The notes under the pieces were generated by a model. The model was not told the DNA's origin and did not search any database. It saw only the letters and a program-made list of their open reading frames with translations. The translations under genes were made by a program, and so were the position numbers. A stretch of DNA of 64,000 nt, taken from a virus (taxonomy: Duplodnaviria > Heunggongvirae > Uroviricota > Caudoviricetes). The stretch lies in the IMG/VR virus record IMGVR_UViG_644736364_000008. One strand, given 5' to 3'. Positions within the stretch are counted from its first letter, which is position 1. Each line of letters begins with the position of its first letter. Shown in pieces: positions 19,567 through 49,658 of this stretch.

Positions 19567-20586
19567 ATGACTGTCAGAAAACAGCCAAACGGTAAATGGT
19601 TGTGCGAGTGCTATCCCAATGGACGCAATGGCAAGCGCGTGCGTAAGCAATTTGCTACGAAAGGCGAAGCCATTGCTTTTGAAAGCTTCACAATGGAAGA
19701 AGTGAACAAAAAACCATGGCTGGGGGAAAAGGAAGATCGGCGACACCTATCAGAATTAATTGAGCAGTGGTATTCCCTGTATGGTCAAACACTCGCAGAC
19801 CCCAAGCGCCTCATAGCGAAACTTAGAATTATCTGTAATGGTCTAGGCGATCCCATCGCTTCAGAACTGACAGCCGGTGACTTTACGAAATACCGCGAAG
19901 CACGGTTAAAAGGTGAAGTACGAAATGAAGATGGCACGTTTATGTCGCCCGTTAAGCCCCGCACGGTAAACCTTGAACAGCGCAATCTATCATCTGTTTT
20001 TGGTACACTGAAAAAGCTGGGCCACTGGTCAGCCCCCAACCCGCTTGCTGGGCTGCCAACATTTAAAATTGCTGAGAGTGAATTGGCGTTCCTGACCCCG
20101 GAAGAAATTAAACGTCTGCTGGATGCCTGCGCCGATTCTCAAAGCTCCAGCCTGCTTTTGATTGCAAAAATATGCCTGGCCACCGGCGCACGCTGGAGCG
20201 AAGCCGAAAACCTGCAGAGTCATCAGGTATCAAAATACCGTATCACTTATACCAAGACCAAAGGCAAGAAAAACCGAACTGTGCCTATTTCTAAGGATTT
20301 ATATGAAGAACTGCCTAAGAATAGGGGGAAGTTATTCACCCCATGCAGAAAAGCCTTTGAGCGTGCAGTAAAGCGAGCCGGTTTAGAACTACCAGAAGGC
20401 CAATGTACCCATGTTCTGCGCCATACATTTGCCAGTCATTTTATGATGAACGGTGGAAATATACTGGTACTGCGCGATATTCTTGGACATGCCGATATAA
20501 AAATGACGATGATTTACGCTCATTTTTCCCCAGATCATCTTGAAGATGCAGTAACTAAAAACCCATTAGCAACCTTGATGGATTAA
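19567..20586 (+). CDS. int: Tyrosine integrase (P2/186 type)
   Basis: 339 aa; C-terminal RHTFASH...GH...Y catalytic motifs. Confidence 0.9.
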   Translation: MTVRKQPNGKWLCECYPNGRNGKRVRKQFATKGEAIAFESFTMEEVNKKPWLGEKEDRRHLSELIEQWYSLYGQTLADPKRLIAKLRIICNGLGDPIASELTAGDFTKYREARLKGEVRNEDGTFMSPVKPRTVNLEQRNLSSVFGTLKKLGHWSAPNPLAGLPTFKIAESELAFLTPEEIKRLLDACADSQSSSLLLIAKICLATGARWSEAENLQSHQVSKYRITYTKTKGKKNRTVPISKDLYEELPKNRGKLFTPCRKAFERAVKRAGLELPEGQCTHVLRHTFASHFMMNGGNILVLRDILGHADIKMTMIYAHFSPDHLEDAVTKNPLATLMD

Positions 20587-21930: not shown

Positions 21931-21975
21931 ATGTAGGAATTTCGGACGCGGGTTCAACTCCCGCCAGCTCCACCA
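21931..21975 (+). ncRNA. ssrA: 3'-terminal 45 nt of tmRNA gene ssrA (attachment-site remnant)
   Basis: atgtaggaatttcggacgcgggttcaactcccgccagctccacca matches the enterobacterial ssrA 3' end; upstream sequence is not ssrA. Confidence 0.7.
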
Positions 21976-23934: not shown

Positions 23935-24759
<825 letters not shown>

Positions 24760-24857
24760 TCAATTGACAACTTATAATCCCTACTAGTTAGCATTATGAT
24801 TTCCAGAGTGAGGAATATAAAAATCTCTGTTTCTGGCACATAACAGCCCTTAAGATC

Positions 24858-24915
24858 GTAGCTCGCCATCATGGGGTGTCGGGGGGCGGAGGTTCAAATC
24901 CTCTCGTGCCGACCA
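24858..24915 (+). tRNA. 3' fragment (about 58 nt) of a tRNA-Pro(GGG)-like gene; 5' acceptor/D-arm absent
   Basis: ggaggttcaaatcctctcgtgccgacca (T-arm, 3' acceptor, CCA) with anticodon-loop-like tcatggggtg; no complementary 5' acceptor strand. Confidence 0.6.
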
Positions 24916-24928
24916 AAAATCCCTTAAG

Positions 24929-24956
24929 AACCAGCCTATTATGGCTGGTTTTTTTA
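24929..24956 (+). terminator. Rho-independent terminator after the tRNA fragment
   Basis: aaccagcc-tatta-tggctggtt followed by TTTTTTT. Confidence 0.6.
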
Positions 24957-25097
24957 TGATTGTTTTTTATGCGGAGAAATACCGGGGAATAATTGGGGTA
25001 AAACACCTTTAGGCTATTCACTTAGCCTACCACCATCAAAATCTTTCCGAATGTATCCATCTCTTTTTTCTTATGCAGCTAAAACGAAGTCTTGATA

Positions 25098-25141
25098 CTG
25101 TTTATTTACACAGATAAGAATAATACTGTCTACAAACGCAG
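25098..25141 (+). promoter_or_regulatory. Two LexA boxes (one exact, one with one mismatch) upstream of a DinI-like remnant
   Basis: ctgtttatttacacag (CTGT-N8-ACAG) and ctgtctacaaacgcag. Confidence 0.5.
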
Positions 25142-25156
25142 TACAAAAGAAGTGTT

Positions 25157-25335
25157 ATGCGTATTGAGATCTCCATAGCCAAAGACAAAATGACCAAATG
25201 CCAAACGGCGCTGTGGACGCGTTAAAGGAAGAATTAACCCAACACATTGGCAAGCGTTATGACGATGTGGAGATGATCGTAAAAGCCACCAGCAACGATA
25301 GTTTTTCAGTTAGACATACTGCAGATAAAGATTGA
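25157..25335 (+). pseudogene. DinI-family gene disrupted by a frameshift
   Basis: Frame 1 gives [14 protein letters not shown] then stops; a second frame starting at 25198 gives [38 protein letters not shown] (DinI-like core). Confidence 0.45.
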
Positions 25336-25759
25336 GCTAAAACTTTCGTTCAGGAAACTCTGAATGATACCTGAGAGTCTACTGAAGAGTTGTTTGTTCA
25401 CTAGTTAGCACGTAGGAAATCATTCAATACTCGCACTATCGGAAGTTCACCAGCCAGTCGTAGCACGTCCTTGCAAACGACGTGCCTACGGTTTCAATCA
25501 CCTCTCACCATCAATTCTATCAATAATAATTAAACAGCGCCTAGACAAAATAAATAACAACAAGTCAACAACCTCGACAGGATGCCGATGGGATGATGAA
25601 GAGATAAGAAAGAATAACCAGTAAAGCCCTAAAACGTCAGCGTTCAGACGCGTTTTTTACTTAATCGGTAACAAATACGTTGTATCATAGCAAAATAAAA
25701 TGATTGTTCTAAATCAGATTAACTCCTCACTTTTGTACAATGTCGCTTACAGGTATACC

Positions 25760-27649
25760 ATGAAATCCGAGACGCTAACTGTCCAACAACTTTTTCAAGA
25801 CCGCCGACAATACTGTGTTCCATTCTATCAACGTGCCTATGTATGGACTCAGCAAGACCAGTGGTCAGCTCTACTGGAGGATATCCTAGAGAAAGTACAA
25901 TCCCGGCTCTCGGGTACAAAACCAACTCCCCATTTCCTTGGTGCGGTTGTACTGGAACCTCAATCAAAAAAAGGATTATTAGGTGTAGATTCCATACATA
26001 TTATTGATGGTCAGCAACGATTGACCACTCTTCAATATGTTCTGGCATCCATCCGATTAGCATTACGTGCTACGGATCTTTCCAGCTTAGAGGCTCTCAT
26101 TTCGCCTTGCCTGAAAAACTCAAACGAAGACACAATGCGAAATAAAGAAGTAGAACGCTTCAAACTGTGGCCAACTTTTCGGGATCAAACTCATTTTATT
26201 CAAAGTTTTAATGTTGAAAATATTGACGATCTCCGGGACGTATTCTCTGATAGTTTCACGCAGCATGGTACGTTGCGTAAGCATTTTAATCACCCGCCAT
26301 CACTAGAAGCATTATGTTTTTTTACTGAAGCCTTTATAAAATGGATTAAAATAGAAAACCACTCACCACAAGAAAATGCTGTAGCTCTAATTGAGGCTGT
26401 CTTAACAGATCTGAAACTGGTAAGCATATTTCTCGAAGCTGAAGATGATGCCCAAATAATTTTTGAAACATTAAATGGGCGAGGGGCGGAACTTCATGCT
26501 ACGGATCTTATTCGCAACTATATCTTTATGTGCGCTGAGCATGAAAATATTAATGCTATTGAATTATATGAAAATGAGTGGAAGAGCTTTGAAGATAAAT
26601 ACTGGTCGGAAAAACAACGCCGTGGACGTATTAATAAACCACGCATGGAGTGGCTAGTACATGCGACATTGCAATCAGAAAGGCAACGTGAAATTGATCT
26701 GTCTCGCCTTTACAATGAGTATCGTGATTATGTAAGTAAGGACTTGTCTTCACAACGAGCAGATCTGCAAGTAAAGCGCCTCAAACAATATGCATCACAA
26801 TATAAAGAATTGGTTGATGGTTTTGGCACAACCCCCATCTCACACTTTGGATATCGCATCGCAGACTATGATGTGACGACACTTTATCCGCTTGCTTTGT
26901 TCATTTCGATAGCTAACATCGCTGATGATGAGAAAGCAGCCATGTATAATGATCTTGTCTCCTACGTAGTACGAAGAGCCGTATGTGGCCTGACGCCAAA
27001 GAATTACAACAATGTATTTATGAATGTATTGCGGCACTTGGCTAAAACGGAAATTTCCAGTGTTGAGTTACGTAATATCCTCAATAACTTAAATGGCGAA
27101 GCCTCACGTTGGCCTGGTGACTCAGAATTTCTCAACGCTTGCATCAATGCTCCACTTTATCCTGGCAGGCTCGACGCACCGAAAATGCGCTCAATGTTAA
27201 CGGAACTTGAAAGAGAACTTTGTCGCCAAGTAAAGACAGAAAAGCCTGATGTTCCAAATCTTTCTAATCTCGATATCGATCATCTTATGCCTCAAAGTTG
27301 GTATTCCTGTTGGCCTCTCGAAAATGGTCGTATGGTGACAAATTCAGATGCTACGGTATTGAACCAAATTGTTCTGTCTGGAACCGATCTTACCCCTGAA
27401 CAGCTACTGGTAAGGAAACGGCAACAAGCGATATCTACTTTGGGAAATCTAACTTTGCTTAACCTTAGCGTAAACCGTTCTGTTCAGAATGCTGTATTTC
27501 TGAAAAAACGTGATGCTCTCATCGTCCACACCAATCTACGACTGAACATTCCACTTATAGTTAAGGATAAATGGGATGAGGATGAAATCCTGGAGCGGGG
27601 TAAAAAGTTGGGGGAAATTGCATTGAAAGTATGGCCAAAACACGATTAA
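25760..27649 (+). CDS. GmrSD-family type IV (modification-dependent) restriction endonuclease-like protein (DUF262 + DUF1524/HNH)
   Basis: N-terminal IIDGQQRLTT motif and C-terminal DIDHLMPQSW...GNLTLLNLSVNRSVQN His-Me finger; alternative ATG at 25700. Confidence 0.8.
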   Translation: MKSETLTVQQLFQDRRQYCVPFYQRAYVWTQQDQWSALLEDILEKVQSRLSGTKPTPHFLGAVVLEPQSKKGLLGVDSIHIIDGQQRLTTLQYVLASIRLALRATDLSSLEALISPCLKNSNEDTMRNKEVERFKLWPTFRDQTHFIQSFNVENIDDLRDVFSDSFTQHGTLRKHFNHPPSLEALCFFTEAFIKWIKIENHSPQENAVALIEAVLTDLKLVSIFLEAEDDAQIIFETLNGRGAELHATDLIRNYIFMCAEHENINAIELYENEWKSFEDKYWSEKQRRGRINKPRMEWLVHATLQSERQREIDLSRLYNEYRDYVSKDLSSQRADLQVKRLKQYASQYKELVDGFGTTPISHFGYRIADYDVTTLYPLALFISIANIADDEKAAMYNDLVSYVVRRAVCGLTPKNYNNVFMNVLRHLAKTEISSVELRNILNNLNGEASRWPGDSEFLNACINAPLYPGRLDAPKMRSMLTELERELCRQVKTEKPDVPNLSNLDIDHLMPQSWYSCWPLENGRMVTNSDATVLNQIVLSGTDLTPEQLLVRKRQQAISTLGNLTLLNLSVNRSVQNAVFLKKRDALIVHTNLRLNIPLIVKDKWDEDEILERGKKLGEIALKVWPKHD

Positions 27650-27672
27650 TGCAATTAATAAAATGATTATAG

Positions 27673-27692
27673 TGGCCTTACATTAGTAAGGC
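27673..27692. terminator. Hairpin between the convergent GmrSD-like gene and the invertase remnant
   Basis: ggccttac-atta-gtaaggcc stem-loop. Confidence 0.35.
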
Positions 27693-27744
27693 CGCTACTC
27701 ACTATTAAATACTTTAATTTGCATCAAGAACAGCAGTGTCAGCC

Positions 27745-27873
27745 CTAGGTCTCGGACTTTGTACCGCTTATCTTGTCTTCAAAAATCAGCTCGCATCCTG
27801 CACAGTTCAGCGCATTACGTTGTAGATCTGTGTTCTGGTCATTTGTTGACACACGTACATAGCCAATAAGCAT
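27745..27873 (-). pseudogene. Truncated Gin/Pin/Hin-family DNA invertase (N-terminal 42 codons only)
   Basis: Minus-strand translation MLIGYVRVSTNDQNTDLQRNALNCAGCELIFEDKISGTKSET then stop; nearly identical to the Gin/Pin N-terminus including the catalytic Ser; rest of gene absent. Confidence 0.75.
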
Positions 27874-27899
27874 GGTAGATCTCCCTGACAAAAGCAGGA

Positions 27900-28394
27900 A
27901 TGATGCCATTTGCTCGTTATTTCTGCATTTTCATAAACGTTGGTTTGGGAGAAGCGGCAAAACGGAATGTGGGCAACGGGGAAAACCAAATCCCTGATAT
28001 GTCTTTCTGGACGGTTACTGGTGGCAATGGAAATTTTGTGATTCGTCAACCTGACGGGCTAATCATTCAGATGGTTACTGTAAGTATAAGCGGCCCAGTG
28101 GCGATGAATGGAATGACTGATAATGCTTATGCCATCACAGGTTCTAATAAGTCTTATATTGCCACAGCCACATTGCCCTTTGTATTTCCTAATAAGGTGC
28201 TGGGCGTTATCCCTCTGGTATCAACAACAGCTTATGGTGGTGTATCCAGTAATATTACAGGTTCATACGCGACGGCGGTTTGTTCTTTTGCCGCTGTCAG
28301 GGGGAATAATACGATTGTGTTCAAAGTCGACAAACCACTGAATGCAGCCTTTCCTTCAGATACCAGCGTCTCAGCGTTAATCATTGGACGGTAA
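27900..28394 (+). CDS. Alternative tail-fibre variable C-terminal domain (Sv'-like), lacking its own constant N-terminus
   Basis: ORF begins inside the crossover site (encodes NVGLGEAA, paralleling NLGLGEG in the expressed fibre); followed by its own tfa. Confidence 0.55.
   Translation: MMPFARYFCIFINVGLGEAAKRNVGNGENQIPDMSFWTVTGGNGNFVIRQPDGLIIQMVTVSISGPVAMNGMTDNAYAITGSNKSYIATATLPFVFPNKVLGVIPLVSTTAYGGVSSNITGSYATAVCSFAAVRGNNTIVFKVDKPLNAAFPSDTSVSALIIGR
27930..27957. repeat. Inversion crossover site (gix/hix-like), invertase-proximal copy
   Basis: aaacgttggtttgggagaag is the inverted copy of cttctcccaaaccaaggttt at 29855-29874. Confidence 0.6.
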
Positions 28395-28396
28395 TA

Positions 28397-28840
28397 ATGA
28401 ACTCAGTATTCTTTTCACCCGGAAGTAAAAGTTTTTATCTGCAAGAATTGTTTCCAGAATATGAGGATGCGGGAACGCTTCCTGATGATGTTATTGAAAT
28501 TACCAGAGAAACATATGAGCAATTTCTTGGTCTGCATCCAGAAGGGAAAGAAATTGGCGCTGACAGTTCAGGACGGCCAGTATGGATTAATTCCCCACCC
28601 CCTTCAAAAGAGGATGAGGTGTTGACGGCTGAAATGAAAAAAATATCTTTGGTTTCAGAAGTCAATACCTACATCAATACCCATCAGTGGCCTGGCAAAG
28701 CTGCTATTGGTCGTCTGAAAGGCGAGGAACTGGCGCAATATAATTCGTGGCTGGATTATCTGGACGCACTGGAACTGGTCGATACTTCCTGTGCGCCAGA
28801 TATTGAATGGCCTACGCCTCCGGCAGTTCAGGCCAGATGA
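28397..28840 (+). CDS. Tail fibre assembly protein (alternative, U'-like)
   Basis: 147 aa; tail-fibre-assembly-like C-terminus; inverted orientation. Confidence 0.7.
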   Translation: MNSVFFSPGSKSFYLQELFPEYEDAGTLPDDVIEITRETYEQFLGLHPEGKEIGADSSGRPVWINSPPPSKEDEVLTAEMKKISLVSEVNTYINTHQWPGKAAIGRLKGEELAQYNSWLDYLDALELVDTSCAPDIEWPTPPAVQAR

Positions 28841-29414
28841 CATCCGGCGCTGTGCTGGTATTTGTTGCCGTCACCGCGTCAATGTAATCCAGCACAGCGT
28901 TAAGCCGGGTTGTTTCTGCCTGCATCAGCTTCCGTCCGGCCTGTAATTTCAGCTGAATCAGACCGATGGAAGCCATTGCAGCATCAATCAGTGACTGACG
29001 CTGTGCTTCTGCCGCGTCTACTGCGGCGCTATGCTGTGCCTCAGTATCGGTCACCCATTTCTCACCATCCCATTTATCGTATGGCGTTAATGGGGCAATA
29101 GTGGTTGTATTTTCGGGGTAATCACCCGGTGCTGTGATTTGTTTTGATTCTCCCGTTTCGGTGTTATAGACGATTTCACCGCGATGGTCTGGCACATATT
29201 CCCATGAATTTAAATTCACAGAACGACAGATAGCATAACCCGCCTTATGTATACCTGGTGCATCCAGACAGGAATATGCCGGGATACCAACACCAACGGC
29301 AAGATATTCACTTGAAGTGGAAATATATTCCCGAGTTTCACCATCATAGTTATAAACGGTAATATCCCCTGCCTTTGTAGCAACAAGTCCACTATTTAAT
29401 ATTGCTTTATCCAT
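28812..29414 (-). CDS. Tail fibre assembly protein (U-like)
   Basis: 200 aa immediately downstream of the tail fibre gene. Confidence 0.7.
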   Translation of the reverse strand: MDKAILNSGLVATKAGDITVYNYDGETREYISTSSEYLAVGVGIPAYSCLDAPGIHKAGYAICRSVNLNSWEYVPDHRGEIVYNTETGESKQITAPGDYPENTTTIAPLTPYDKWDGEKWVTDTEAQHSAAVDAAEAQRQSLIDAAMASIGLIQLKLQAGRKLMQAETTRLNAVLDYIDAVTATNTSTAPDVIWPELPEA

Positions 29415-30157
29415 TATGCTGCTCTCACGATATAGTTAAATGCAATGTTGCGTGGACGGGTATCGACGGGGTTAACGGCCACTGTACCCGACACGGACTG
29501 GTCATTACCGTTGCTAACGGTAATGTTACTACTGGTTGATCCAATCCCTACTGAATCGGTAAATTTAGCACCTGAGCCGCTCAAAGTTCCCGAGATGATA
29601 GCTAGCTCCACATAAAAAGTACCTACAGTTGGCTCTTGTGTTGACAGCACCGCACGCCTTGAATCAACGCCGCGCCCATCATCCCAGCCACGAATAAACT
29701 CACCACGTAAATCAGGCAATTTATTTGTCGGATAAGCCTTTGCCAGTTCCGGGTATTCTTCAGCAGAAAAAGCCGCACCGTTGCATTTCAGCCAGCCTGT
29801 TGGCGGTGTGGCTGAAGGCCATGGAACAGGCACACCAACAGGTAATGCAGAGCCTTCTCCCAAACCAAGGTTTTCGAGAGCCGTTTTCACCGTGCCGTCC
29901 GATTTGATATCGCTAAACGGATTCTTGCGGCTTAACAGCAGCGCACGAAGCGCGGTAAGCAGCTGGTCGTGCCGCGCCTTCTCCAGACTGGCACCGGATG
30001 CCTCCACCACGCTGCAGAGTTCTTCCTGCAACATGTCAAAGTAGTCATCATCCAGATCGGTGGCAGGCGTGCCTGTCTGGGGGTTACCACGGGTAAAACC
30101 GTTCTTACCCGCGCCGAACTTATCCTTCTGCGCGGTTTTCGTGTCTATACGATGCAT
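29414..30157 (-). CDS. Tail fibre protein (constant N-terminus plus currently expressed variable domain with tail-collar motif)
   Basis: 247 aa; [22 protein letters not shown]...[17 protein letters not shown] tail-collar signature; crossover site inside the gene. Confidence 0.8.
29853..29880. repeat. Inversion crossover site (gix/hix-like) inside the tail fibre gene
   Basis: ccttctcccaaaccaaggttttcgagag; core aaaccaaggtttt matches the hix/gix core and is inverted relative to 27930-27957. Confidence 0.6.
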
Positions 30158-30160
30158 GGA

Positions 30161-30745
30161 TTACTCCGGATATTTAAAAATTACGTAGGTATGCGAAGGG
30201 CAGAGTTTGTTAAGCACACATTCGACGACGGTGTCGCCCCAGATACGCAGCGCGGAATCACAGGGATCGCCACATGTCATCCAGGTGCTGTTGGTGGCGG
30301 CTGGCATGTTGACCTGCCAGTAATACCGCCATTCCGGCGCATTCACCGCGTCAGTACAGGCCGATGAGCAGGTGAACGTGCTTTTGTCGTATCGCGTGAT
30401 GGTGGCGTCTGGTCTGCCCAGGGCAGCAAGCTGTGCAAGGTAAAAATCCTCATTGATGCCGCCCGCCAGGTTAACCTTCGCATCCAGTCGTTGCTGACGC
30501 TGGCGAAGGGTCTGTGTTCCTGCGGGAATACATTCATCCGGCAGGCCGCACAGACGCTCCCAGCGATTTATCAGTTCGGTGGTGGTGCGCGGATCCAGCT
30601 CCCGCATCAGGGCATCCGCACGCTGATGAACGCGGGTTAATGACTGTGCCGCACCGGCAATCGCCGGATCGCTGGCTGACCACGCCGGACCGGGCGGCAG
30701 CAGTGCCGACAACAGACGGATGTAATCATCGTTTGTCACGCCCAT
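30161..30745 (-). CDS. Mu gp48-like baseplate / tail-fibre attachment protein
   Basis: 194 aa between baseplate J-like gene and tail fibre; Mu-like order. Confidence 0.55.
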
Positions 30746-31794
30746 GAAATCGTCCCCAGAACCGCCAGTTCATTTTTTGCAATGGAGATATTTTCCGCCG
30801 GTGCAAGCAATTGATGGCTGTATTCCCCGTTCGCACCGGAAATCGCTTCACTGATACGCGACACCTTCAGTTCTCCCTGCGGATAACCATCACGCAGCAG
30901 GAACGAACGCAACTCCGCGGTGATGGCAGCCCGTATTTCCGGTGTATCCGGCGTCACACGGATATGAAAATCCACCGTATGCGCCACCGGCCTGAACACA
31001 TACAAATCAGAGCCTGCCACCGGGGCCAGTGGCCCGATATGTTGTCTTGCCGCCGTTTCCGTTGATTCTTCCGGAATGGGATTAATCAGGTCACTGCTGG
31101 CAATCATCACACCGACAGTCCCCGTTCCCATCCAGTGACGGTATGCCCATGCGCGGGTAATGCCGGGCAATTCTTTAGCCCAGACAACATAGTCCCCGTC
31201 AGCCCCGCCCTGAGGCGTCCAGTAATACCGCTCAATGACGCGGGCGCGCCACGTTTCCAGCTCTTCAGTATCAAATCCACCTGTCAGAGTGTCTGCCACG
31301 CCGGAAGACGGCAGACCATTAACCGGCGTGACCAGGATTAATGACGTACCGTCGTCAGCGTTACCGACCGCGCCTGCACTTGAGCAGGCGATCGGCACGC
31401 GCAGGACACCACCGGCGCTGGTTGCATCGGCAGTTGCCGTGTACTGAATCAGGTCATCGCGCTGAATAACACTCCCGGCGGTCACCTTCAGGCCATCGCT
31501 GACGCCTTCCCAGCGCATATACCCGCTGGCAGTCGTGGCCCCCTTGCGCGGACACCGTTTCATCGCAGCATGTCGCGCCAGCCAGGACTCATCGCACAGG
31601 TCAGGCAGCATGTTCATTGCCAGATAATCGATGTACCCGTAAACCGTATGCAGCGCCGCCGCATACACCTTTGCCCGCACGTCTTCATCCATGCGCCGGA
31701 GCGTGTCGCTGACGTCCAGCCTGGCGAATAAATCGTTACGGAGCATACTGATATTTTCTGCCAGCGTCGGGCGCTGAAATTCACTGTCCGCCAT
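30736..31794 (-). CDS. Baseplate J-like protein (Mu gp47-like)
   Basis: 352 aa; position and size in a Mu-type baseplate operon. Confidence 0.75.
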
Positions 31795-47586: not shown

Positions 47587-48027
47587 ATGAGTATCCCCAG
47601 TTTAGATGTTCATAAAGTTGTTAAGTGCGCAGAGCATAAAAAGGCTTTAGATGCAATATCTCTCAAACTTAAGAATAACATTATTGACTCAAGCTCTGAA
47701 TACGATTTTCTTGGCGACACAATAATTTTCAATAAAGATAAAAAAAATAGGTTAACCCTCAAACTTTCAACATATGAACTAGAACTTATTTTCAAAGAAA
47801 CACTGCTAGTCATTGATGAAGCTCCTGTATTGAAGTTTGCTGCCATTGACCCAACCGATGAAAATAACAACGAGCTGATTGATTTATTTTTATCCAAAGG
47901 TGGATTTATTTATATTAGAGAATACAAATCCGAGCCACATTATGAGTATGGCGACACTTCTCTATTTTTACATATACTTGACGCTACTCTTAAAGAGCTT
48001 AAATCTGCAAACAAAATATCCTATTAA
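47587..48027 (+). CDS. AT-rich cargo protein of unknown function (146 aa)
   Basis: Opposite strand to surrounding phage genes, strongly AT-rich, SD aggtgg upstream of ATG at 47587. Confidence 0.6.
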   Translation: MSIPSLDVHKVVKCAEHKKALDAISLKLKNNIIDSSSEYDFLGDTIIFNKDKKNRLTLKLSTYELELIFKETLLVIDEAPVLKFAAIDPTDENNNELIDLFLSKGGFIYIREYKSEPHYEYGDTSLFLHILDATLKELKSANKISY

Positions 48028-48893: not shown

Positions 48894-49366
48894 ACCTGAA
48901 TCTCTTTGACCGTTCCGCCGGCTTCTTTGAATTTTGCAATCAGGCTGTCAGCCTTATGCTCAAACTGACCATAACCAGCTCCCGGCAGTGAAGCCCAGAT
49001 ATTGCTGCAACGGTCGATAGCCTGACGAATATCACCGCGATCAATCATCGGTAAAGCACCACGCTCTTTAATCTGCTGCAGTGCAACAGCATCCTGGCTT
49101 TTTGGAGAGAAGTCTTTCAGTCCAAGCTGTTTACGGTATGCATCCCACCAGCGGGAAAGAAGCTGGTAGCGCCCGGCAGCCGTTGATTTGAGTTTTGGGT
49201 TTAGCGTGACAAGTCTGCGAGGGTGATCGGAGTAATCAGTGAATATTTCTCCGCCCACAATGACGTCATAACCATGATTACGTGTCGGTTGTAGCCCATT
49301 ATCCGTTCCTTCTGACCAGGCCACCATATCGAGGAAAGCTTTACGCTGAGGATTAAGATTTTGCAT
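48890..49366 (-). CDS. Endolysin (lambda R-like transglycosylase/lysozyme)
   Basis: 158 aa; AWSEGTD catalytic-Glu motif. Confidence 0.8.
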
Positions 49367-49658
49367 TTTTCACCCCTGTCAGTCGTTCCCAGAAGTACGT
49401 CAGTGCAACCGAACCCATCGCACCACTAATCCCCGCAGTTGCGAGAATCATGTAAATACTGAATCCACTTTCGATACTGATTAGGCCACCAATAACACCG
49501 GTGAATCCTGATACAACTATCTGAGCGAGGGCATTTATCCAGCTCCACGTTGCTTTACTCTGCTTCACATCAATCAGGTAACGGACAAGCCCCCCCCAAC
49601 CTGCGATGATCAGCAAAACAAGCCAGAACGCTCCGGCAAGATTCTCTTTTTCGTGCAT
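49353..49658 (-). CDS. Holin (start at MHEKENLAG; ORF extends to 49757)
   Basis: Three hydrophobic helices, charged C-terminus; overlaps endolysin start. Confidence 0.6.
   Translation of the reverse strand: MHEKENLAGAFWLVLLIIAGWGGLVRYLIDVKQSKATWSWINALAQIVVSGFTGVIGGLISIESGFSIYMILATAGISGAMGSVALTYFWERLTGVKNAKS

Follow-up and report, generated by a model that had tools for sequence, protein, structure and literature searches.

The window analyzed here is a 64-kb stretch of DNA that contains, in an SfV/e14-like prophage at ssrA of an MS7163/N53-like ST95 strain of Escherichia coli, an invertible tail-fiber region next to a truncated invertase gene (Table 1). Besides the fiber region, the prophage has a Mu-type baseplate (gp44-48 homologues, upstream of the segment), an HK97-type head, an integrase, a LexA-like repressor, and a lambdoid early region. 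With integrase, repressor, replication, lysis, head, and tail genes all present, it looks complete. The holin frameshift annotated in MS7163 is absent from the window. The first 25,979 nucleotides (nts) of the window (1-25979) match MS7163, and also N53, with 0 mismatches. Because the left 21.9 kb is a 186/P2-like prophage that occurs in MS7163 and N53, UTI89 was rejected as the source of the window. Only the 45-bp 3' end of ssrA is in the window (21931-21975), and ARAGORN found no tmRNA there.

TABLE 1 Features of the invertible tail-fiber region and its flank, with positions in the window
Feature	Position	Strand	Description
GmrSD / type IV methyl-directed restriction enzyme gene	25700-27649	+	GmrSD_N + GmrSD_C; PADLOC mREase_IV, 1415 bits
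pin stub	27745-27873	-	ATG at 27873; homology ends ~27751; 41 PinE-homologous codons, one foreign codon, stop
Predicted Fis-dependent recombinational enhancer	27789-27852	-	Inside pin stub; motif scan
Left crossover site (pix), 26 bp	27928-27953	-	TTCTCCCAAACC-AA-CGTTTATGAAAA; identical to pinE-proximal site, K-12 e14
Invertible segment	27942-29866	.	1925 bp between central dinucleotides (~1.93 kb)
Silent alternative fiber tip	27942-28394	+	Without constant N-terminus at present; weak gp53-like C-terminal match
Chaperone of silent tip	28397-28840	+	147 aa; 54% identical to e14 TfaP; Caudo_TAP 5.9e-28
TfaE-type chaperone of expressed tip	28812-29414	-	200 aa; 90.5% identical to K-12 TfaE; Caudo_TAP 4.4e-30
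Expressed tail-fiber gene	29414-30157	-	247 aa; Collar domain
Right crossover site (pix), 26 bp	29855-29880	+	TTCTCCCAAACC-AA-GGTTTTCGAGAG; identical to stfP site, K-12 e14

The segment is bounded by paired, inverted 26-bp sites with conserved half-sites and the same central dinucleotide, AA, at 27940-27941 on the left and 29867-29868 on the right. Inverted-repeat arms of 20 nt each (27935-27954 and 29854-29873) are complementary at 19 of 20 positions. The 15-mer CTTCTCCCAAACCAA that the sites share is found at exactly two places in the 64-kb window, one on each strand, and no copy is expected by chance (100 shuffles of the window, one mismatch tolerated); there are no further copies of the site in the window. 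Thus, the two inverted crossover sites proposed in the first-pass annotation are real, and the match between them survived realignment. Both proved to be exactly the pix sites of e14. A shufflon, with the Rci tyrosine recombinase and multiple sfx sites, was ruled out because there are two sites only and the adjoining remnant belongs to the serine (Resolvase) family.

Between the sites are two convergent tip-plus-chaperone modules. The constant N-terminal part of the expressed fiber (30157 to ~29869) lies outside the segment and its variable, StfE-type tip with the Collar domain lies inside; the right pix site falls within the fiber codons for ENLGLGE. Amino acids 1 to 105 of this fiber are 95% identical to StfP, and amino acids 96 to 247 are 60% identical to StfE. 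The match of the silent tip to PF21882 (gp53-like) has an E value of 5e-5, just under the cut-off. As read, the open reading frame (ORF) of the silent tip is 27900-28394 (+) and contains ...INVGLGEAAKRN, the start at 27900 reflecting only read-through of flanking DNA. Inverting 27942-29866 in silico gave an uninterrupted 247-codon fiber fusion ending in ALIIGR and a stop, so that the alternative fiber C-termini, with their chaperones, can each be brought in frame with the one constant N-terminus. In IHE3034 the silent tip is annotated as just such a 247-aa fiber fusion, which bears out the in-frame tip swap that had been predicted from the window.

No functional small serine invertase gene adjoins either site; what remains is a stub of pin, MLIGYVRVSTNDQ...GTKSE, with 41 of about 184 codons left, the 3' three-quarters of the gene having been replaced. 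Over its first 123 nt, the stub agrees with K-12 pinE at 119 positions, and the translated stub matches Pfam Resolvase (E = 6.5e-9) over profile positions 2-47 of 145. It keeps the catalytic-Ser motif VRVSTNDQ and has lost the remaining catalytic domain, helix E, and the DNA-binding domain; RefSeq labels it "recombinase family protein, incomplete, missing C-terminus." The truncation noted at first pass is therefore genuine, although the 42 codons counted then are 41 Pin-homologous codons plus one foreign codon. Elsewhere in the 64-kb window, tblastn (E ≤ 10) gave no Pin-like match. Judged from its sequence, the prophage's cis invertase is dead. The GmrSD gene is convergent with the stub and has the same position as mcrA in e14. 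This cargo beyond pin varies among relatives, being mcrA in e14, two large ORFs in MLI104K1, and GmrSD in the window. The defense genes on the flank of the stub are those for PD-T4-3 and GmrSD.

Invertase genes of the Gin/Cin family contain a Fis enhancer. A scan of the stub found two Fis-like 15-mers (G-N13-C) at coding nt 22-36 (27838-27852) and 71-85 (27789-27803), with ATCTA...TAATG between them and with their centers 95.5 and 144.5 bp from the pix center. These are predicted sites only, 49 bp apart; the spacing of the hin Fis sites is 48 bp. The stub itself reaches to ~190 bp from the pix center. The hin enhancer has been described as 65 bp long, ~100 bp from hix, with a Fis site at either end and ATTTA/TAATG between the Fis sites, and the geometry predicted here matches the published one. 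We infer that the stub may supply the Fis enhancer for the segment.

On sequence grounds the locus is the direct homologue of the P segment (Pin/pix) of K-12 e14, not of Mu G. In addition to the identity of both 26-bp sites, YmfQ is 98%, the StfP N-terminus 95%, and TfaE 90.5% identical, and the gene order is that of e14: ymfQ, fiber, tfa, inverted tfa, inverted tip, pin, and restriction gene. The differences from e14 are that pin is cut to 41 codons and mcrA is swapped for a convergent GmrSD gene; that one tip is gp53-like instead of the StfP tip, with a Tfa just 54% identical to TfaP; and that this prophage is complete and occupies ssrA, while e14 persists as a remnant at icd. The locus resembles Mu G (Gin/gix) and P1 C (Cin) in having the constant 5' part of the fiber gene outside and two convergent tip-plus-chaperone modules inside, 26-bp sites, a serine invertase gene abutting one site, and, here, Mu-type baseplate genes upstream. 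However, the segment is 1.9 kb long and that of Mu G is 3 kb, and the prophage, with its integrase and lambdoid early region, is not a transposable phage. Orthology to Mu S/U and S'/U' with Gin and gix is not supported: the best matches are to e14 and SfV-family prophages, and only the baseplate genes are Mu-like. The earlier label "Mu G-segment-like" was thus right about the anatomy, which is that of invertible segments of the Gin/Pin/Cin/Hin type, and wrong about the nearest relative, since the sites are identical to those of e14. The biology of the e14/Mu-type fiber switch has been known since the 1980s, and the present system is unremarkable apart from a modest twist.

The segment is present in both orientations in the lineage. 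The same pin stub was found in 90 complete genomes with the window's orientation and in 24 with the predicted inverted form, and the stub-GmrSD junction is the same in both groups. Compared to the full in silico product, 22 of the inverted genomes are 100.0% identical, PMV-1 is 99.0% identical, and PA45B is 97.5% identical. The product in IHE3034 equals the in silico prediction, and the annotation of that genome shows the same pin pseudogene. Native and inverted loci differ by 0-1 SNP per 20-29 kb (UTI89, IHE3034, and the window). Because the locus is almost SNP-free, it gives no resolution on repeated inversion in the ST95 tree, and a locus tree to count inversion events was given up. In ST95 trees from the literature, APEC O1 is separate from UTI89 and IHE3034, a placement that needs only one inversion event.

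Inversions at 0.9, 2.1, and 2.9 Mb of the UTI89 chromosome were first picked up in short-read data of ordinary cultures and were then validated by PCR in wild-type UTI89, without an overexpressed recombinase (PMC6458436). The three primers published for the 2.9-Mb inversion (CGCTTGCATCAATGCTCCAC, CTGTGCTTCTGCCGCGTCTA, and CGTCTGTTGTCGGCACTGCT) map on the window to 27136-27155 (+), 29001-29020 (+), and 30699-30718 (-), with predicted products of 1718 bp for the reference and 1672 bp for the inverted orientation. All four UTI89 assemblies (4/4) have the reference orientation, and so flipping in this strain is probably a minority event. The first-pass annotation had taken the switch to be frozen by loss of the invertase. 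At the level of the lineage this is contradicted by the population evidence, that is, by the 90 native and 24 inverted genomes behind the same stub and by the published UTI89 PCR.

The reading that we favor, at a probability of roughly 0.8, is that the locus is an orphan P-segment switch of an e14/SfV-like prophage, its pin destroyed by GmrSD, which flips with a Pin-family invertase acting in trans. The GmrSD restriction cassette would have replaced all of pin past codon 41. Since both sites and the first 123 bp of pin survive, and the enhancer of this family lies there, the segment would have become an orphan substrate, inverting once a Pin-family invertase is supplied in trans. Dimers of the serine invertase would bind the two 26-bp sites with the Fis-bound enhancer acting in cis, and cleavage with a 2-bp stagger at the central AA would be followed by subunit rotation. 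The crossover would fall in the LGLGE codons, and inversion would swap the tip-plus-chaperone pair joined to the constant part of the fiber. We infer that the tips differ in receptor specificity.

Inversion of the segment in this lineage is probably carried out by the invertase of another prophage. The P2-like prophage that UTI89 carries beside serS encodes an intact 199-aa Pin-family invertase with 78% identity to PinE (UTI89_RS04425, 918974-919573); we reached it via the 0.9-Mb coordinate of PMC6458436. The gene adjoins its own gix-like sites and is 2 Mb from the segment, and its product is a candidate for the enzyme that flips the pix segment in UTI89. The proviso attached to the frozen-switch claim, that an invertase might act in trans, therefore appears to be the operative case. 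The inverted state was found in 8/23 with an extra pinE-like locus and in 3/34 without one (odds ratio, 5.5; P = 0.02, uncorrected for phylogeny). In three of the inverted genomes (PMV-1, GN06489, and GN06758), no second pinE-like or pinR-like chromosomal locus was found at the sensitivity of blastn; they must either have inherited this orientation or owe it to a plasmid, to a phage, or to an enzyme of greater divergence. The second pinE-like locus of IHE3034 lies neither at serS, which is unoccupied there, nor in the P2 prophage at pflA, which has a tyrosine-integrase fragment only and in which tblastn found no invertase. PinR/PinQ as the general trans enzyme was rejected because pinR-like sequence is absent from most chromosomes, including those of UTI89 and IHE3034.

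There are precedents for inversion in trans. Fin of Fels-2 acts on hix in Salmonella LT2. An H region with hin inactivated was inverted by plasmid-borne hin. In K-12, PinQ shares only 38% identity with PinE and yet inverts the e14 P segment at the repeats that PinE uses (PMC12529663). These cases are like the present one in that a paralogous small serine invertase from elsewhere flips a segment with its own gene absent or inactive. The resident invertase there was intact or laboratory inactivated, whereas in the present locus the gene was lost naturally, the loss is fixed in a clone that has been successful, and what remains is just a stub spanning the predicted enhancer.

Thus, a dead invertase beside an invertible segment does not imply a frozen phenotype. 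Paralogous invertases of co-resident prophages can keep orphan switches active, so phase variation cannot reliably be called "locked" from annotation. In the ST95 ExPEC clone (UTI89, IHE3034, APEC O1, and others), the orphan switch accounts for one of the two unexplained UTI89 prophage inversions, and it offers a natural system for asking how much of the invertase gene (the enhancer) inversion in trans requires in cis. A more elaborate version can be put forward only tentatively, and we doubt that all its parts would hold together. The stub would be a retained Fis enhancer and the host-range switch would be outsourced, flipping only in lysogens with a Pin-family invertase such as that of the serS P2-like prophage. 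Tip choice, or an StfE2-like receptor-blocking defense, would then depend on co-resident prophages, and the truncation would derive from a GmrSD-for-mcrA swap at a cargo hotspot bounded inside pin.

The alternative that survives best concerns the window's strain only, in which, if it had no suitable invertase, the StfE-type tip would be permanently expressed and the silent tip and its chaperone would be decaying cargo. The search for an intact paralogue, positive in UTI89, gave a different result with MS7163, the strain that the window matches: its chromosome has no second pinE-like locus and no prophage at serS, its two P2/186-like prophages are without an invertase, and no invertase was found in the first 50 kb of pMS7163A. 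However, MS7163 does have one pinR/pinQ-like locus, and PinQ inverts these very sites in K-12 (PMC12529663). Moreover, the tips, chaperones, and sites, two of each, are all intact and do not differ from those of the flipped genomes, with no sign of decay. We consider a permanently locked switch in this strain unlikely. As the strain is without the UTI89-type P2-like prophage, its switch may be slow or locked.

An alternative compatible with the orphan-switch reading is that the switch is kept for the benefit of the host, the fiber-derived protein of one orientation blocking the receptors of other phages as part of a defense island. Inverting the homologous e14 segment is reported to block T2 adsorption, through StfE2 (PMC12529663), and defense genes flank the stub here. 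On the other hand, the prophage looks complete, so a plain phage host-range role suffices, and the effective chimera in e14 starts at the stfE leader by pinE, the counterpart of which in the window (27900-28394) is only putatively expressed. We regard a role of this kind as improbable.

The crossover can be placed no finer than 15 identical bases, and consequently, had the 15-20-bp repeats recombined by a RecA-dependent or illegitimate route that needs no site-specific invertase, the products would look the same as those of site-specific exchange. Repeats of 15-20 bp are too short for efficient RecA recombination. These repeats are, moreover, bona fide pix sites, identical to those that PinE and PinQ use. 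The inversion in UTI89, where there is an intact invertase, is frequent enough for short-read detection, and the inverted state is enriched with the extra pinE-like locus, all of which makes such a route very improbable. Least credible of all is that prophages already differing in orientation acquired the stub-GmrSD module by homologous recombination, with no inversion after the truncation: the cargo beyond pin does differ among relatives, so the region has been exchanged horizontally, but native and inverted ST95 loci are identical bar 0-1 SNP over 20-29 kb on both sides, the right-hand crossover would be confined to the ~190 bp between stub and pix site, and the in-culture inversion of UTI89 occurs with the stub in place.

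The serS P2-like region of UTI89 is similar to the locus in the window in having a Pin-family invertase (78% identical to PinE), 26-bp sites with similar half-sites, and alternative tips with chaperones. It differs in that the invertase is intact, the site sequence is another one, and the prophage belongs to another family; the central dinucleotide is GA in its gix-like sites and AA here. An aberrant inversion of the FI-U tail block of this P2-like prophage was considered and dropped because the order is the same in 76 genomes. The UTI89-type P2-like fiber region is also found in phages such as "Escherichia phage P2" from O157:H43 T22, and some P2-like phages have ~89% DNA identity to parts of the segment.

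The region from 27.7 to 30.2 kb holds what the first-pass annotation described: inverted crossover sites bracket alternative fibre tips and their chaperones. The inverted repeat is 20 nt long and complementary at 19 of 20 positions (arms at 27935-27954 and 29854-29873). Its 15-nt core, CTTCTCCCAAACCAA, has two exact copies in 64 kb, one on each strand; no such pair is expected by chance in a 64-kb window, with one mismatch allowed. The central dinucleotide is AA in the left and right sites alike, and the inversion reaction requires that these dinucleotides match. The first ~96 codons of the expressed fibre gene lie outside the invertible segment, and the silent tip has a weak gp53-like C-terminal match. 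Reverse complementing 27942-29866 in silico gave an unbroken fusion ORF ending IIGR*, so the proposed in-frame swap of tips is real.

Features of the invertible region, its surroundings, and the UTI89 P2-like prophage (L007 is the UTI89 stretch 880000-929999)
Feature	Position	Strand	Details
GIY-YIG protein	23935-24741	minus	PADLOC PD-T4-3, E=8.6e-137
DinI-like pseudogene	25157-25374		in defence cluster
pin stub	ATG 27873	minus	starts MLIGYVRVSTNDQ, 67 bp from left site centre
Left 26-bp invertase site	27928-27953	minus	TTCTCCCAAACC-AA-CGTTTATGAAAA
Silent tip ORF	frame open from 27900; coding sequence proper, crossover to 28394	plus	
Second tail-fibre chaperone	28397-28840	plus	
TfaE-type chaperone of expressed fibre	28812-29414	minus	
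Expressed fibre gene	29414-30157	minus	247 aa, Collar domain
Right 26-bp invertase site	29855-29880		TTCTCCCAAACC-AA-GGTTTTCGAGAG
UTI89 P2-like gix-like sites	L007 39629-39654 and 42307-42332		TTCCTGTAAACC-GA-GGTTTTAAATAA and TTCTCGTAAACC-GA-GGTATTCGATAA

Among known systems, sequence comparison places the region closest to the P segment of e14, a cryptic prophage of K-12, and not to the G segment of Mu, after which it had been labeled. Both 26-bp sites are identical to those of e14. Identities to the e14 proteins are 95% for the constant part of the fibre (StfP), 60% for the expressed tip (StfE), 90.5% for TfaE, 98% for YmfQ, and 54% for the second Tfa (TfaP). Gene order is also the same, and in both systems pin is followed by a gene for modification-dependent restriction, which is mcrA in e14 and GmrSD in the window; only the silent tip has no counterpart in e14.

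The adjacent invertase gene is dead, as had been claimed. Homology of the stub to K-12 pinE extends over 41 codons (119 of 123 nt identical), after which the sequences diverge totally and a stop follows one codon on. Its Pfam match covers only positions 2-47 of the 145 in the Resolvase domain, and RefSeq classes it as a recombinase pseudogene that is incomplete. A 12-codon upstream extension of the stub ORF (MASFLLLSGRST, ATG 27909; ORF 27745-27909) was rejected because, by alignment with pinE, it is noncoding sequence upstream of the gene. A tblastn search with PinE found no other Pin-like sequence in the window. The remainder of pin has been exchanged for ~100 bp of spacer that includes a terminator-like hairpin, plus a convergent gene encoding a 649-aa GmrSD protein (Pfam GmrSD_N and GmrSD_C; PADLOC "type IV methyl-directed restriction enzyme," 1415 bits). 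The cargo in this position is mcrA in e14; in MLI104K1, pinE is intact and is followed there by two different large ORFs. A cluster of defence genes, made up of the GIY-YIG protein gene, the DinI-like pseudogene, and GmrSD, occupies the prophage end (23935-27649), directly beside the stub. It seems to be a hotspot for cargo genes with an inner boundary that can encroach on pin.

The loss of pin had been taken to freeze the switch, which is wrong at the level of the lineage. An inverted query (27000-27941, the reverse complement of 27942-29866, and 29867-30800) was run against 5,426 complete E. coli genomes. The predicted inverted state was found over the full query in 24 genomes, including IHE3034 and APEC O1, at 100.0% identity in 22, 99.0% in PMV-1, and 97.5% in PA45B. 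Because these matches include the stub and the 3' end of GmrSD, all 24 share the truncation. Ninety genomes, among which UTI89 appears four times, hold the native orientation as a contiguous match. Flip aside, native and inverted loci differ by 0 to 1 SNP per 20 to 29 kb. The inversion junctions in IHE3034 are exactly as predicted; its annotation has the same recombinase pseudogene and a 247-aa protein in which the gp53-like tip is joined to the constant part. The shared truncation and near identity of these loci indicate that at least one inversion postdates the truncation of pin.

Inversion has already been seen in UTI89, but was not explained there. A study of structural variation in this strain reported inversions at 0.9, 2.1, and 2.9 Mb that did not depend on the Fim recombinases and were confirmed by PCR in wild-type cells; one of two prophage inversions was said to adjoin a phage invertase, "pin" (PMC6458436). 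The "2.9 Mb" primers (the first printed with one surplus A) map to the window at 27136-27155 (plus, GmrSD), 29001-29020 (plus, inside the segment), and 30699-30718 (minus, ymfQ). Together they form the classic three-primer assay for the segment, with computed products of 1718 bp (reference) and 1672 bp (inverted). The mapping settles the identity of the locus despite panel letters that are inconsistent between text and legend. Thus, the segment flips in UTI89 populations although the cis invertase is dead. The architecture and the dead invertase stand, and the kind of system is long known; of modest interest is a naturally orphaned switch still working, probably with a borrowed enzyme.

The trans source of this enzyme in UTI89 may be the P2-like prophage adjoining serS, to which the published 0.9-Mb coordinate leads. 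It carries, at L007 38975-43596, an intact invertase of 199 aa, 78% identical to PinE over 183 residues, and the adjoining invertible fibre region; there, gix-like sites with a central GA flank alternative tips and chaperones. This region is the "0.9 Mb" inversion. The order tape measure, U, invertase, fibre is also present in 76 genomes. Invertases of this family are well known to cross-react, and Gin, Cin, Pin, and Hin are interchangeable. H regions with inactivated hin are routinely flipped by hin on a plasmid. The P segment of e14 is inverted, at repeats identical to those in the window, by PinQ, which shares only 38% identity with PinE (PMC12529663).

We counted extra pinE-like loci per chromosome with a chimeric query (a GmrSD anchor plus full-length pinE). 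At least one was present in UTI89, NU14, IHE3034, and others, and none on the chromosomes of MS7163, ATCC 11775, PMV-1, and others. With a pinR control query the anchor was single-copy, and pinR/pinQ-like genes were not found in most of these genomes. Among the 57 genomes listed, the inverted state was commoner with an extra locus (8/23 versus 3/34; odds ratio, 5.5; P = 0.02), but this association is only suggestive because the genomes are not phylogenetically independent.

Invertases of the Gin/Pin/Cin/Hin type require a Fis-bound enhancer in cis. That of hin is 65 bp long with a Fis site at either end, lies on the hin gene ~100 bp from hix, and remains active kilobases away. The stub extends to 190 bp from the site centre and spans two Fis-like 15-mers (G-N13-C) centred 95.5 and 144.5 bp from the crossover, with ATCTA...TAATG between them (ATTTA/TAATG in hin). 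The truncation thus removed the enzyme but probably spared the predicted cis enhancer. Inversion in trans would use this element; an enhancer 2 Mb off in the P2-like prophage would be unable to serve. In APEC IMT5155 (L003 1118-3947, the comparison stretch from that strain), ISCro1, an IS66-family element, separates the stub from the left crossover site of a segment in the inverted state, which fits an enhancer acting at a distance but is no proof of it. Another IS66 interrupts GmrSD in IMT5155; in N66 and MS20654, IS3 elements have inserted in this gene or close to it.

The first 26 kb of the window are identical to MS7163, and the match of N53 to the left junction region is just as good; these two ST95-type ExPEC strains are related to UTI89. 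In MS7163, serS is free of prophage, and the chromosome has one pinR/pinQ-like locus and lacks a second pinE-like one. No invertase was found in the 186/P2-like prophage that this strain has at ssrA, in the initial 50 kb of the ColV-type plasmid it carries, or in the P2 prophage at pflA, for which the complete IHE3034 copy was read. Therefore, the claim that the switch is locked unless served in trans may come close to the truth for the window's own genome, doubtful as we consider this. In the IHE3034 pflA prophage, the genes for the fibre chaperone and the sheath are separated by a DUF5677 gene and a tyrosine-integrase fragment of 51 codons (L014 15741-16794, in the IHE3034 stretch 975000-1003000). 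The morons of P2 itself (Z/fun) occupy this slot.

The surrounding element is a complete-looking prophage of the SfV/e14 family at ssrA, with a Mu-type baseplate, sheath, tube, HK97-type head, terminase, lysis genes, antiterminator, LexA-like repressor, and integrase. Upstream and in tandem at ssrA, a 186/P2-like prophage fills 1-21930 (CI, CII, and Fil-type early genes; integrase at 19567-20586); among the 5,426 genomes, only MS7163 and N53 have it at full identity. Because the duplicated part of ssrA (21931-21975) comprises only its 45-bp 3' end, ARAGORN reported no tmRNA. Between baseplate gene V and the morphogenesis genes of this prophage is a moron-like AIPR-family ORF (566 aa, 561-2261; PADLOC AbiU-like, E=1.7e-24) on the strand opposite to its neighbours. 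The holin gene (49352-49657) is intact in the window; the MS7163 assembly has one base fewer there and is annotated as frameshifted. An extra A at 47740 relative to UTI89 opens an ORF of 146 aa, which the MS7163 annotation includes and that of UTI89 does not. Both may be homopolymer sequencing differences.
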